Shown in pieces: positions 13,705-17,603 of a stretch of 17,603 nt of DNA. How positions within the stretch are numbered: the stretch's first letter is position 1; each line of letters opens with the position of its first letter. The stretch is from the IMG/VR virus record IMGVR_UViG_2703718840_000011, one strand, 5' to 3'. Both the position numbers and the translations under genes were made by a program. The notes under the pieces are model-generated. The model saw nothing but the letters and a program-made list of their open reading frames with translations, made no database searches and had not been told where the DNA came from. This DNA is from a virus (Duplodnaviria; Heunggongvirae; Uroviricota; Caudoviricetes).

Positions 13705-14885
13705 CCATGGCGGCAAGGCCACGTAAAAAAGAATACAGACATCTTCCTGATTATCTGGTTTTTGATAAAGATCGAGGTGTTTATAAATTCACACTTATTA
13801 CCGGAAAAAAGAAAAATATAGGTAAGGATCGGGCAATAGCCGTTGCAATCGCCAGAGAGTACAACCTGAGGATGCGATCAGAATTATACCCATCAGTGGA
13901 TAATCTTATTAGAGAATCTGGCGGGGTCACCGGAGAAGCAAAACCATTTGCTGAACATGTCGATCACATAATGGCCAGAATTATCGAAGACGAACGACCT
14001 TCCCAGAGTACCTTAGATGACTGGAAAAATGACGCTCTACGCGTAAAAGCATTTTTCGTAAATGTTCCGGCATGCGATATCGAACTTGAACACGTTAATG
14101 CCTACATCAACAAATATCATGCCAGCGCATCCGCAAATGTGCAGAACAGAAAGGTCAGCTTTCTTAAAAAGTTGTTCTCTTATGCGGTCGATGAATCACT
14201 AATGCAGGATAACCCGGCCATCAGAAAAAAAATGCGTAGGACTGATGAGAAGAAAAGACGGCGCCTGTCACTCGAGCATTTTATAGCTATCAGGCAGGCC
14301 GCTGCACCATGGTTAAGAACAGCAATGGACCTAGCATTGCAGACTACACATGCACGACTCGAAGTATCGCGAATCCGTTACTCAATTCGCGAACCTAAAG
14401 ACGGTTTATGTGGATGTGTTTGGTTCGAACAACCACAAAATGGCATATATGGTACACTATACATCCATAGGCAAAAAGTACAAAAAAAGGAGGCATCACA
14501 TGTTGCAATACCAATTGGTGAAGAATTGAAACGGATAATTGACAATAGCCGTGACAATGTGGCCAGTCCCTTTGTCGTTCATAGAATCCCAGAACGGCAT
14601 GTTAAACGCAGTAAAGAGGTTTCGCACCCAACTCAAGTTGCACCAGATTATTTGAGTCGGTCATTCTCTTCCGTGCGAGACAAACTCGGACTATGCAATC
14701 ATCTAGCAATGGAACAAAGACCTACATTCCATGAAATAAGAGCTTTGGCAGCTCACCTATTTGATAAACAAGGGATTGATCCGCAGGGACGAATGGCACA
14801 TAGCGATGCGAAATCTACTAAAATTTATACTAAAAATCATATAGATTGGATTGTTGTCCCTCATGGAGAAATTAAAACCGGTTAG
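13701..14885 (+). CDS. int: Tyrosine-type site-specific integrase (lambda Int family)
   Basis: 394 aa. C-terminal catalytic region with H-x-x-R (TFHEIRALAAHLF) and the tyrosine motif (MAHSDAKSTKIYTKNH). Arm-binding-like N-terminus. Xis immediately upstream. Confidence 0.9.
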   Translation: MTMAARPRKKEYRHLPDYLVFDKDRGVYKFTLITGKKKNIGKDRAIAVAIAREYNLRMRSELYPSVDNLIRESGGVTGEAKPFAEHVDHIMARIIEDERPSQSTLDDWKNDALRVKAFFVNVPACDIELEHVNAYINKYHASASANVQNRKVSFLKKLFSYAVDESLMQDNPAIRKKMRRTDEKKRRRLSLEHFIAIRQAAAPWLRTAMDLALQTTHARLEVSRIRYSIREPKDGLCGCVWFEQPQNGIYGTLYIHRQKVQKKEASHVAIPIGEELKRIIDNSRDNVASPFVVHRIPERHVKRSKEVSHPTQVAPDYLSRSFSSVRDKLGLCNHLAMEQRPTFHEIRALAAHLFDKQGIDPQGRMAHSDAKSTKIYTKNHIDWIVVPHGEIKTG

Positions 14886-15022: not shown

Positions 15023-15985
15023 TTATTTACCCTTATTATACTCTTCAGTAATCTTATTCATGGATGATATATATTTATCCAGCCCACCATAGTTGGCTAT
15101 CATTCGAAATGAATTACGGTACTCTGCCATTTTCACATCATGATTAGTAATTCCACACCAGCCACAAACTTTATTTTCCATGTTTAAAGGCTCATAACAT
15201 TTTTTACATTGCCTTGATGCAGGTATTATATTGCCATTAATAAATTGGTGTGATTTGAGATTTTGAGATAAAAGAAATGGTGTAGTTGTTGTTTTTCCTA
15301 TTACCATTTCGAAATATCTACATTTAGCCTTTTTAGCTAAAGATTGAATTTTCTGCTTTAATAAATCATTTGATTTGTGCCCAACTATAACTCCAGTTAT
15401 ACAATTAATCGGTACCGGAAGGAGCATAAGATTGTCATTCAGTTTAGTAAGTGCTTTCTCATTAATTATTACGCGACGTTCCTGCTCATAACTCCAGCAA
15501 GTTTGTTTTGTCAAATATGCGGCTGTCATTATACAGGATTGTAGCCAGTAGATATAACGAGGTTTACAGATATGAAATGCTCTCGCCAGAATGTCTTCAA
15601 TACCTGTATCTGGAGAATCTTTATATTCAACATCTGCTATTGAACTATGATCCTGGAAGCCGATTTCATCCAAATACTTTTTAAACTTCTCCTCATTAAT
15701 CTCTATTACAAAACCAGAAGAATTACCTGCATAATGTGCCCACATAGGTGGTATCACAGGGCTTTTCGTAAAACAAGTTGCTGGTTGTTTTGTAACCATG
15801 CCAATCATTTCATTGTAAAATGCTAACTCATCAGAACCGCGATTAAAATCAATAGTAAGGAAAAACTCATAGGGATCATTATATTCATGTAAATGAGAGA
15901 ATTTTATTCCTATATGTGTTTCATCCATCATCAATTTATCAATTATATCCGCTCCCATAAACTTATACAAATTGGTCATATACAA
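15023..15985 (-). CDS. DUF2971-family protein with C-terminal CxxC...CxxC zinc ribbon (320 aa)
   Basis: N-terminal NLYKFMGADIIDKL...IKFSHLHEYNDPYEF matches the DUF2971 hallmark (LYKY...FS.P..FNDPFE). C-terminus CKKCYEPLNMENKVCGWCG. AAGGAG RBS 7 nt upstream. Strongly AT-rich gene and flanks. Confidence 0.75.
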   Translation of the reverse strand: MYMTNLYKFMGADIIDKLMMDETHIGIKFSHLHEYNDPYEFFLTIDFNRGSDELAFYNEMIGMVTKQPATCFTKSPVIPPMWAHYAGNSSGFVIEINEEKFKKYLDEIGFQDHSSIADVEYKDSPDTGIEDILARAFHICKPRYIYWLQSCIMTAAYLTKQTCWSYEQERRVIINEKALTKLNDNLMLLPVPINCITGVIVGHKSNDLLKQKIQSLAKKAKCRYFEMVIGKTTTTPFLLSQNLKSHQFINGNIIPASRQCKKCYEPLNMENKVCGWCGITNHDVKMAEYRNSFRMIANYGGLDKYISSMNKITEEYNKGK

Positions 15986-16065: not shown

Positions 16066-16428
16066 GATGTAGTTCGAGGACAAACTGAAACGTATTATTG
16101 ATAACAGTCGCGATAACGTTGCCTGCCCGTATATCGTTCACCGTATACCGAGCGTAATAACAAACGCAGTAAAGAGGTATCCGCACCTGCCTATCTTAGC
16201 CATACTTTTCATTGCCCCGTGATTCGTTAGGCTTGTGTAATAATTTGACGATGGAGCTGCGCCCCCACATTCCACAAAATACGCGCACTAGCTGCATTTT
16301 GTTTGATAAACAGGGAGTAGACCACAAGGGCTCATAGCCCACAGCGACGCGAAATCAACGAAAATTTATACGCGGAACCATATGATTGGGTAATGCTTCC
16401 GCACGGTGAAATTAAATACAATGCATAA
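16066..16428 (+). pseudogene. Decayed 3' fragment of a second, related tyrosine integrase gene
   Basis: Seen directly: nucleotide similarity to the 3' end of the intact integrase (e.g. identical AAACGCAGTAAAGAGGT; ...GCGATGCGAAATC.ACTAAAATTTATAC...; ...CACGGTGAAATTAAA). Translation gives KLKRIIDNSRDNVA.P.IVHRIP, then frameshifts and stops, then ...AHSDAKSTKIYTRNH...PHGEIK. It lacks the 5' two-thirds of the gene. Confidence 0.65.
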
Positions 16429-16430
16429 TA

Positions 16431-16458
16431 AAATTGGCCTCAAATGAGGCCAATTTTG
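16431..16458. terminator. Bidirectional rho-independent terminator (perfect palindrome AATTGGCCTCA-AA-TGAGGCCAATT flanked by A- and T-runs)
   Basis: Seen directly: AAAATTGGCCTCAAATGAGGCCAATTTTGG. Lies between the integrase remnant (+) and the convergent minus-strand operon. Confidence 0.6.
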
Positions 16459-16462
16459 GGGA

Positions 16463-16846
16463 TTAGGACGCTTTAGACTTGGTCATATTAGCGCAACGCT
16501 GGATTAATTTCTCTGCAGTCTTAATCGCGGTGCTTGATTGGGTTGGCGTAATAGTGTCGTTAAGTCTGTAATCACAAACTATTCTCTGATCCTTAAGCGA
16601 TTGAAGAGCATACCCCAAACCAATTAAGTCTCTTTTTTCAAAAGGTTCGTTACCCTTCCAAGCATCGTTAACAAGATAGTCAATGAGGCCTTGGTGACTT
16701 TCTTTCGGCCCCATGGTCAAACACGGAAGTACGTGGTGATAAGCACCATAATACGCACGTGCGACAGCGTTTCTGTAACCAATTTCGTCGTTACGCTTTT
16801 CACAATCTTTTGCGAAAGCGATAAAATCGGAACTATTAACTGGCAC
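16463..16846 (-). CDS. Hypothetical small protein (~127 aa from a GTG start); possible Rx6H HEPN-like motif (speculative)
   Basis: The track ORF starts at ATG 16897, which would overlap the upstream gene by 62 nt. An in-frame GTG at about 16846 is preceded by a perfect GGAGG 7 nt upstream (inside the 3' end of the upstream gene). The motif RAYYGAYHH is noted. AT-rich. Confidence 0.5.
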   Translation of the reverse strand: MPVNSSDFIAFAKDCEKRNDEIGYRNAVARAYYGAYHHVLPCLTMGPKESHQGLIDYLVNDAWKGNEPFEKRDLIGLGYALQSLKDQRIVCDYRLNDTITPTQSSTAIKTAEKLIQRCANMTKSKAS

Positions 16847-17603
16847 GCGCAGGTTCCTCCAAACGCCCTTCAAACCATACGCTGAAGGGTTTTCCAATCA
16901 AACTTTCATTTTCTGCAAGAGAAAATGCTATATCCAAGTTCATATCAGAGAGAACATCAGAATCTTCAGTATTAACTGCCATGACATATGATGACGTACG
17001 CTCTTCAGGGATAGAGCAGAAAGACATAGCAACAGGACTAACTTTATGGTCAGCCATGATATCCACTATGCGGTTTGCAATATCCTGTAGTTCTTCATCA
17101 GTAATTCCAGTTGCACTTTTGAAGGTCGTGGATTGGGCCAGTGCTGTGGCTGCGAGGTGCTTAACCAATTCAGCCTCCTTTTCATCTACCATACTTATCA
17201 ATCTCTCAGCATAGTAGAGCGCTTTGTCAATACGCCCCAAGAACAAGTTAGCTTCCCATGCATGGGACAGCATCGTAGGGGAGTTATAACGTTCAACTAA
17301 TCGATTTACCACTTGTTCAACTTCACGGAAGCTGCCGTAATCGTTGAGATAAACTACATAATTTTGAGCAATGATCAGGTTGTTATGCTTCAATGCTTCT
17401 TCAAAGAATGCAACTGCAGTATCTTTACGCCCAAAAGCACCATTAGCCAACGCTTTGAGATAGTCCTCAGATGCGCTGTCGCGCAACTTTTCTATATCTC
17501 TGATATAACGAAAATATTGCATTTCGGATATCGTATTCCGAGCCGCAAGAATATCGATTAATTCACTGCTGATTTCGTTCGCTTTTAGCGCCGGCTGTGG
17601 CAT
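16836..17603 (-). CDS. Hypothetical alpha-helical (TPR-like) protein, 255 aa; 5' end at the window edge, possibly partial
   Basis: Long ORF whose ATG coincides with the last bases of the window. Helical repeat-like composition (YLKALANGAFGRKDTAVAFFEEALKHNNLIIAQNYVVYL...). Its 3' end contains the RBS for the downstream gene. Confidence 0.55.
   Translation of the reverse strand: MPQPALKANEISSELIDILAARNTISEMQYFRYIRDIEKLRDSASEDYLKALANGAFGRKDTAVAFFEEALKHNNLIIAQNYVVYLNDYGSFREVEQVVNRLVERYNSPTMLSHAWEANLFLGRIDKALYYAERLISMVDEKEAELVKHLAATALAQSTTFKSATGITDEELQDIANRIVDIMADHKVSPVAMSFCSIPEERTSSYVMAVNTEDSDVLSDMNLDIAFSLAENESLIGKPFSVWFEGRLEEPARAS

Follow-up and report, generated by a model that had tools for sequence, protein, structure and literature searches.

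Ribonucleases (RNases) with a HEPN domain recur as effectors of immunity in bacteria, among them Cas13, Csm6, RnlA, AbiV, Tha and HepT, and how they are restrained and triggered is mostly unknown. In the HEPN-T clade (PF05168) it has been described that "D replaces conserved H", and that an alternative active site could arise with a second conserved histidine, which comes from an insert between helices 2 and 3 (Anantharaman et al., PMC3710099). AbiV has been reported to abort infection as an RNase that acts on rRNA (PMC13064643), and Tha, held back by a cognate inhibitor, becomes active when it meets the tail proteins of an incoming phage (PMC11087260). Here we describe a gene pair at the end of a 17,603 nucleotide (nt) stretch of tailed phage DNA, IMG/VR record IMGVR_UViG_2703718840_000011 (called the window, at its full length), where a gene for a probable HEPN-T protein, gene 2, directly follows a gene for a TPR-like protein, gene 1. 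HEPN toxins as such are known, and HEPN genes of other clades had been noticed beside genes for repeat proteins in 2013; what is new here is a HEPN-T protein with a TPR-type partner. In place of the nucleotidyltransferase that usually accompanies its clade, the HEPN-T protein has acquired a repeat protein as partner. The domains were already automatically annotated and both families are found in PHROGs, but no function, pairing or system name is given for them in PADLOC v2, NCBIfam, the available parts of the DefensePredictor tables or the accessible part of the literature searched, and the NetFlax paper does not cover the pair.

The two genes form a conserved coupled unit, and in all loci examined the HEPN gene is immediately preceded by a homologue of gene 1. 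An earlier note, made from the sequence of the window alone, had treated them as a two-gene operon of tightly coupled genes for proteins of 255 and about 127 amino acids (aa), and both the ribosome binding site and the overlap at the junction that it pointed out were found again (Table 1). Judged by this junction, the genes are translationally coupled. In 17 related loci the second gene overlaps the first by 1–20 nt or follows it after no more than 15 nt, with a clear GGAGG or AGGAG type site in front of the second gene in about half of them. RefSeq uses the same GTG start for gene 2, and the ATG or GTG starts of the homologues align with it, with an N-terminus of M-P/S-V in common; a TTG start at 16897, which would give a protein of 144 aa, was rejected because of homology and annotation. 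The start codon of gene 1 makes up the final three bases of the window and is identical to the RefSeq start. The earlier note had proposed to extend the sequence past 17603, and this was possible in the corresponding locus of Escherichia coli strain 51008369SK1 (L001; window coordinates are L001 coordinates minus 3601, window position 17603 being L001 21204). There, an in-frame TAG lies 18 nt upstream of the ATG, and the open reading frame of gene 1 is therefore complete and not truncated by the window.

The protein of gene 2 is probably a catalytically active member of the HEPN-T clade. On its own it scores 13.2 bits against PF05168, below the Pfam cut-off of 22, but 21 of its 28 homologues match the family (best E-value 2e-5), several members in the databases have a precomputed PF05168 match, and JGI and UniRef label members UPF0332 or HEPN. 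As the single sequence is below the threshold, the membership rests on the family and not on the window protein alone. PDB searches with the single sequence gave noise only, and the family profile matched 9xbd and 9xbc, both deposited as "HEPN domain-containing protein", at 7.8e-5, and AF0298 at 0.021. The fold is an all-α, up-down helical bundle, common to the solved HEPN domains. The sequences of 9xbd and 9xbc differ at the tyrosine aligned with Y93 (SDY in the former, SDF in the latter), and 9xbc is apparently a Tyr-to-Phe variant made by the depositors.

In an alignment of copies from Entero-, Vibrio-, Aeromonas- and Gilliamella-type bacteria, betaproteobacteria and Vibrio and Klebsiella phages, with 29–64% identity, the residues E21, R25, A27, R30, Y32, Y33, H37, H51, L81, R88, D92 and Y93 are invariant. 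The motif RAYYGAYHH aligns with AYYAMFHAA of AF0298 and SRAYYAMFY of 9xbd, H51 with the histidine of "DSKTHRGTI" in AF0298 and "SSHSAVI" in 9xbd, and R88, D92 and Y93 with "R..SDY" of both. The canonical Rx4-6H at the end of core helix 3 was not found in the family alignment, as there is no histidine at this position. The HEPN-T pattern was found instead, with D92 in place of the histidine and H51 in the insert, both of them invariant. RNase activity seems likely because the invariant residues fit this arrangement of D for H plus an alternative H, and because of the precedent of AbiV. The HEPN-like fold that the earlier note had considered possible has thus held up, on the PF05168 and PDB profile matches. 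Its reading of RAYYGAYHH as the Rx6H motif has to be revised, since R30-x6-H37 is located on helix 2 and is not the catalytic motif, and the reservation that the motif could have arisen by chance can be dropped, as R30, Y32, Y33 and H37 are the same in all aligned copies, at identities as low as 29%.

Gene 1 gives only weak TPR matches in Pfam, but in an AlphaFold2 model (pLDDT 92) residues 4–136 fold into eight TPR-like helices, followed by a long connecting helix (residues 141–165) and a small acidic α/β domain, which spans residues 169–246 in the model. The helical or TPR-like protein of the earlier note is accordingly recognisable, with a C-terminal domain added to it. The best conserved block of the family is located within the α/β domain (DMNLDIAFSLAEN ... 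KxFSVWF), and both domains are kept at fixed length across about 140 clusters. Among 74 diverse members, all positions with at least 80% identity are hydrophobic or alanine. This lack of conserved polar residues across the family argues for a binding protein rather than an enzyme, and a cryptic nucleotidyltransferase or other enzyme was ruled out on the same ground; no nucleotidyltransferase match was found in Pfam or NCBIfam. A diverged DUF1902 (HicB-type) identity of the C-terminal domain was likewise rejected, with an hhalign probability of 0.5%. The isoelectric point (pI) of the protein is 4.7, as compared to 8.3 for the HEPN protein of E. coli.

Relatives of gene 1 suggest what kind of gene stands after it. 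Two 50%-identity clusters, P0148 (324 aa) and P0199 (317 aa), align with the gene 1 family over the full length (hhalign 99%) and have an extra C-terminal DUF1902, which scores 29.7 bits in P0199, above the Pfam cut-off of 22 bits, and 18.9 bits, below it, in P0148. Both are followed, with a 1-nt overlap in each case, by a hicA toxin gene (PF07927, 1.8e-10) within a phage structural cluster. DUF1902 has been reported as a domain of class 7 HicB proteins, and hicA reportedly adjoins many of the genes with a DUF1902 (bioRxiv 10.1101/2023.12.08.570793). Since HEPN is replaced by HicA in these relatives, the slot after gene 1 reads as a toxin slot, and the TPR plus α/β unit would be a scaffold that combines with more than one toxin. 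The metagenomic phages of the two HicA cases are related, so that a single evolutionary event may lie behind both. A further member of the family, P0161 (292 aa; locus L029, 230-1527, a metagenomic contig; hhalign 99.8%), has a 38-aa C-terminal extension, and the 135-aa protein encoded downstream of it has no Pfam or PDB match and is neither HEPN nor HicA. It may be a third type of effector for the gene 1 scaffold.

Lambdoid, P2-like, Mu-like and other prophages carry the pair, at cargo sites that are unrelated to each other. The pair was found in Pseudocitrobacter, Enterobacter, Mixta and two Aeromonadaceae, and the partner genes in Gilliamella (98%), a P2-like Vibrio phage (95%) and Klebsiella phage ST405-OXA48phi1.3 (97%) were recognised as gene 1 homologues by hhalign. 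For the partner in Klebsiella phage Chronis, hhalign covers the N-terminal half, and the PHROGs match of Chronis gp57 is full length. A HEPN gene of the same family also follows the distant gene 1 relatives P0150, P0188, P0124 and P0211 and the partner of P0053 (hmmsearch 1e-23 to 1e-51). Altogether the pair occurs in at least ten different genomic contexts, with the genes co-directional and abutting or overlapping. In prophages of Yersinia and Serratia it separates the antiterminator Q from the lysis genes, and in E. coli, Pseudocitrobacter and Enterobacter it lies between int and the attachment site. P2-like Vibrio phages and prophages have it between ogr and the replication gene A, and prophages of Aeromonas in front of their lysis genes. 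Other copies are located inside tail or baseplate clusters, the pair is a solo insertion between core genes in Mixta and Gilliamella, and on one metagenomic contig it adjoins a type I restriction-modification gene. The PHROG matches of the two window proteins are full length (phrog_17809 and phrog_5176, 3.7e-42 and 5.8e-30), both families being of "unknown function" and neither entry giving the pairing or the domains. The phage-borne gene 1 partners were recovered by profile comparison and PHROGs only; the nucleotide search of the phage collection gave no match, and a tblastn search of phages with the gene 1 protein had no match at E 1e-3. No HEPN relative was matched in the plasmid collection.

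We lean, with some reserve, towards the pair being a toxin-antitoxin-like module for abortive infection or phage exclusion. This reading, which the earlier note had raised as a possibility, is the best supported one because of the phage cargo context and the swap to HicA in the relatives. We infer RNase activity, toxicity, neutralisation by the partner, a trigger and an anti-phage outcome, and we propose that they are connected as follows. Gene 2 would be a HEPN-T ribonuclease with an active site formed by R88 and the alternative H51, near which E21, R25, R30, H37, D92 and Y93 would be located. Gene 1 would be a non-enzymatic, acidic partner, made in a fixed ratio to the HEPN protein by the translational coupling, and would hold it inactive, with the TPR array as the likely sensor surface. 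When a protein of an incoming phage binds the partner, or when the partner is lost, the HEPN protein would be freed and would cut cellular RNA. The resulting growth arrest would protect the lysogen population from superinfection.

Several observations weigh against this picture. As the canonical HEPN histidine is missing, catalysis would depend on the proposed alternative site. The contrast between an acidic and a basic protein is not general, the HEPN family having a median pI of 7.0 (range 5.3–9.8). No DNA-binding domain (helix-turn-helix, ribbon-helix-helix or other) was detected in the gene 1 protein, unlike the classical type II antitoxins. The α/β domain is kept in the HicA-linked variants and therefore is not simply a HEPN-binding domain. 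Neither protein was matched in PADLOC-DB v2.0.0 (E-values up to 1) or NCBIfam, and a scan for sigma-70 promoters upstream of the pair gave no sites above the shuffled expectation.

A plain addiction module, in which a HEPN toxin and a labile TPR antitoxin stabilise the prophage or island and no phage is sensed, would explain some of the same features, and we regard it as unlikely but as a serious candidate. The coupled order of antitoxin and then toxin, the HEPN toxin fold and the swap to HicA would all be expected of it. It would also fit that solo chromosomal insertions occur, and that the E. coli pair survives beside the debris of an integrase, as a module that resists deletion should do. 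On the other hand, a TPR array of 140 residues is unusually elaborate for neutralisation alone, both gene 1 domains keep a fixed length across the clusters, and the cassette favours the moron and defence-hotspot positions of phages. Addiction modules are common on plasmids, but there were no plasmid matches to this pair.

The missing histidine also leaves room for a non-toxic phage accessory, where the HEPN protein would be inactive or would bind RNA or nucleotides, and together with the TPR protein would regulate expression, for instance the timing of lysis or the late transcripts, or form a chaperone-like complex. Non-catalytic, RNA-binding HEPN domains have been discussed for several families (PMC3710099), and several copies of the pair adjoin lysis or structural genes. 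We find this distinctly unlikely, since eight residues with polar or charged side chains stay unchanged even in copies with 29% identity and match the alternative active site proposed for the clade, and since a bona fide HicA toxin takes the place of HEPN in the relatives, which points to a toxin slot. The insertion points also vary from phage to phage, which would not be expected if the pair served one particular phage function. Their variable, accessory nature would rather suit a counter-defence pair of temperate phages, which could for example sequester or cleave an immune RNA or signal of the host, and TPR proteins can be sponges or binders. A function of benefit to the phage would, however, be lost in decayed remnants and solo insertions, where the pair is kept, and its own terminator and conserved upstream control region are typical of morons expressed in the lysogen. 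The association with HicA does not fit either, and we hold a counter-defence role to be quite improbable. Least credible, to the point that we hardly consider it, is a type VII-like pair in which the partner would enzymatically modify the HEPN protein at Y93, as the minimal nucleotidyltransferase (MNT) AMPylates a tyrosine of HepT. In favour of it, Y93 lies next to the motif and does not vary, the closest relative in the PDB has been deposited in wild-type form and with Tyr-to-Phe at the aligned position (9xbd, 9xbc), and HEPN-T proteins usually pair with MNT (PMC3710099). Against it, the partner here has no nucleotidyltransferase or other enzyme signature, no polar residues that could be catalytic are conserved across its family, and it folds as a TPR-like array with a small α/β domain.

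The cassette, 1.15 kb plus a control region of about 0.45 kb, seems to carry its own regulatory signals. A perfect inverted repeat, TCTGTGGATAA-N7-TTATCCACAGA, was found at L001 21400-21428, 196–224 nt upstream of the gene 1 ATG and about 200 nt beyond the end of the window. With the half-sites written as TGTGGATAA-N7-TTATCCACA, it holds two exact copies of the DnaA-box consensus (TTATCCACA), of which there are no others in 41 kb. Enterobacter has the identical repeat at an equal distance upstream and Pseudocitrobacter a symmetric variant, TGTTAATAA-N7-TTATTAACA, and related repeats are present in a Yersinia prophage, in the different context of Q to the lysis genes. The general pattern TGTnnATAA-N7-TTATnnACA, about 200 nt upstream, is shared by four loci in two contexts, and a flanking block, ATAGCACTTTTTG...CTTAT, is likewise conserved. 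In the copies from Mixta, Aeromonas and Gilliamella, and in those of phages, no such repeat was seen. It is a candidate operator of the cassette, for autoregulation or for DnaA.

At the other end, the hairpin between the operon and the converging recombinase pseudogene closes both (Table 1), and the strong bidirectional terminator that the earlier note had seen here is borne out by the RNA fold, which gives -17.5 kcal/mol and z = -5.1, with none of 200 shuffled sequences as stable. A simple terminator scan made no call for the 16430-16457 hairpin.

Taking the scaffold and the repeat together, we can imagine a more far-reaching arrangement, which we put forward as speculation and consider doubtful in its full form. 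The gene 1 protein would be a portable, phage-sensing scaffold coupled to interchangeable RNase toxins, to HEPN-T directly, to HicA via the fused DUF1902 and to at least one further partner of 135 aa. Its own operator of two inverted DnaA-box-like half-sites could tie the expression or activation of the toxin to DnaA or to the replication state, and the pairs would amount to a new family of abortive-infection systems, with two components of which the sensor is separable.

Table 1. Features of the gene pair and its surroundings. Positions refer to the window unless another locus is named.
Feature	Position	Strand	Description
Gene 1	16836..17603	-	255-aa acidic protein, TPR-like array + α/β domain; RefSeq WP_001136067; phrog_17809; proposed sensor/antitoxin partner
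Gene 1 residues 1-140, TPR-like repeats	17184..17603	-	Predicted helices 4-20, 27-39, 43-57, 60-73, 76-89, 92-102, 109-121, 125-136
Gene 1 residues 166-246, acidic α-β-β-α-β domain	16866..17108	-	pI ~4.1
Shine-Dalgarno GGAGG of gene 2	16860-16856	-	Within the last codons of gene 1, 9 nt before GTG
Gene 1/gene 2 overlap, 11 nt	16836..16846	-	Gene 1 TAA 16838-16836, gene 2 GTG 16846-16844
Gene 2	16463..16846	-	127-aa HEPN-domain protein (probable HEPN-T/PF05168, AF0298-like), pI 8.3; RefSeq WP_001145023; phrog_5176; proposed RNase effector/toxin
RAYYGAYHH, gene 2 residues 30-38	16733..16759	-	Helix 2; corresponds to the 'sRaYYa.fH' signature of PF05168-type HEPN
His51 of gene 2, alternative histidine	16694..16696	-	Invariant; starts helix 51-66, inserted between core helices 2 and 3
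R88-I-V-C-D92-Y93 of gene 2	16568..16585	-	End of third core helix; canonical HEPN Rx4-6H position, Asp for His
Bidirectional intrinsic-terminator hairpin	16430..16457	.	AAAATTGGCCTC-AAAT-GAGGCCAATTTT; 12-bp stem, 4-nt loop; A-tract on one side, T-tract on the other
Recombinase pseudogene, C-terminal fragment	~16079-16428	+	RefSeq annotation; converges on the operon
Inverted repeats in further loci	L003 5019-5043; L002 5019-5045; L011 6995-7019 and 7115-7141		

A comparison with complete E. coli genomes showed that the region 16400-17603 is present in 74 of 5426, in 73 of them at 100% identity, and that it is chromosomal and in single copy in each, with no plasmid copy. The window is thus E. 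coli chromosome, and in L001 it covers a lambdoid prophage with early genes of the yfdP/Q/R type and an integrase, followed past the integrase by a DUF2971 gene, the recombinase pseudogene and two genes annotated as hypothetical, which are the pair. A 3' fragment of tRNA-Pro lies about 450 bp beyond the pair, and then yejO. In the remaining E. coli genomes the match is restricted to the tRNA-Pro/yejO part, and the pair therefore sits within an island integrated at tRNA-Pro (proL), between an integrase remnant and the attachment site. Over 72 nt the recombinase pseudogene matches the 3' end of the intact integrase gene of the prophage (14771-14842, + strand) at 72% identity, as a diverged copy of it. 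Pseudocitrobacter and Enterobacter have the intact equivalent order of pair, convergent integrase and prophage, and by this comparison the pseudogene appears to be the scar of the element that first carried the pair. A single tRNA-Pro attachment fragment was found within 41 kb. The diverged integrase copy and the single fragment suggest that two related elements were integrated in tandem at proL and later fused by a deletion, in which the second integrase would have lost its 5' part and the middle attachment site would have disappeared.

The integrase debris and the horizontally acquired nature of the cargo, both proposed in the earlier note, are thus supported by the pseudogene and by the location within a tRNA-Pro island and prophage. 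The low GC content that it had taken as a further sign is real but mild, since the pair has 42.8% (about 40% at third codon positions) as compared to 45.3% for the window, and is no outlier within the prophage. The average of E. coli is about 51%. The outlier is the neighbouring DUF2971 gene, with 33%.

This DUF2971 gene (15023-15985, - strand, 320 aa) lies between the intact integrase and the integrase remnant and adjoins the pair region. It matches PF11185 (1.8e-9), phrog_1762 and the PADLOC candidate defence family PDC-S31 (4e-22), and its protein ends in a Cys-rich, zinc-ribbon-like tail. Its int-proximal cargo position is the slot held by the TPR-HEPN pair in related prophages. A distinct DUF2971 protein of 181 aa is the validated system DS-45 (DefensePredictor paper). 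In a prophage remnant of Serratia fonticola (L014-L016, 1892-3589), an ApeA-like HEPN protein of 565 aa, with weak matches to PF18862 and PF18739, is encoded about 3.7 kb upstream of a TPR-HEPN pair, so that two different HEPN systems occur in one small region.

Clinical lineages of E. coli carry the cassette, and many temperate phages have related ones. If it is active, it represents a defence family missed by PADLOC v2 and by the PHROGs annotation, and one more "hypothetical" pair of prophage cargo would be explained. The pairing of the gene 1 family with HicA also suggests a modular design of "sensor plus toxin". If the pair is an addiction module only, the finding is a modest one.

Compared to the known systems, the pair shares its HEPN-T protein with the MNT-HEPN modules (HEPN-T, PF05168, AF0298/UPF0332-like). 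There the antitoxin is a minimal nucleotidyltransferase, whereas here it would be a TPR plus α/β protein of 255 aa with no enzyme signature. The MNT-HEPN modules are expanded in Archaea and have been transferred to thermophilic bacteria (PMC3710099), and the pair described here belongs to temperate phages of Gammaproteobacteria. The link to HicBA systems with a DUF1902-type HicB, which are established RNase toxin-antitoxin systems, goes through P0148 and P0199, but gene 1 of the window has no DUF1902 (the 0.5% mentioned above) and its partner is HEPN and not HicA. HEPN proteins beside α-helical repeat proteins are known in LA2681, fused to or in an operon with TPR, and AbiU2, in an operon with a Sel1-repeat gene (PMC3710099, Table 1). 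These keep the canonical Rx4-6H and belong to separate HEPN clades, and they are set apart from the HEPN-T-like window family by description. The validated HEPN pair DS-28 (ANEX) is of similar size but unrelated, with a different HEPN protein (motif RNSVAH) and a different gene order, and neither accession of the window proteins is listed in the available parts of the DefensePredictor supplements.

AbiV of Lactococcus, a type III toxin-antitoxin system, is like gene 2 in that the canonical histidine is missing and an alternative one is located at the HEPN-T position (PMC3710099). The structural likeness is weak, below that to the HEPN-T structures in Foldseek. The antitoxin of AbiV is an RNA, whereas the upstream partner in our pair is a protein, and no sign of a type III RNA antitoxin was found, there being no significant tandem repeats and no Rfam family above the threshold. 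Tha of Staphylococcus aureus prophages is a prophage HEPN RNase near the integrase end, as gene 2 would be, and combines a sensor region with a HEPN effector (PMC11087260). It is a single polypeptide of about 300 aa with a canonical R265-x4-H270 and an unstructured or unknown N-terminal sensor, whereas the window pair consists of separate, coupled genes and appears to be of the HEPN-T type. The inhibitor of Tha, Ith, is a small protein encoded in antisense, and the likeness to the window pair is by description, not by sequence. Tha is the closest functional precedent for the mechanism proposed here.

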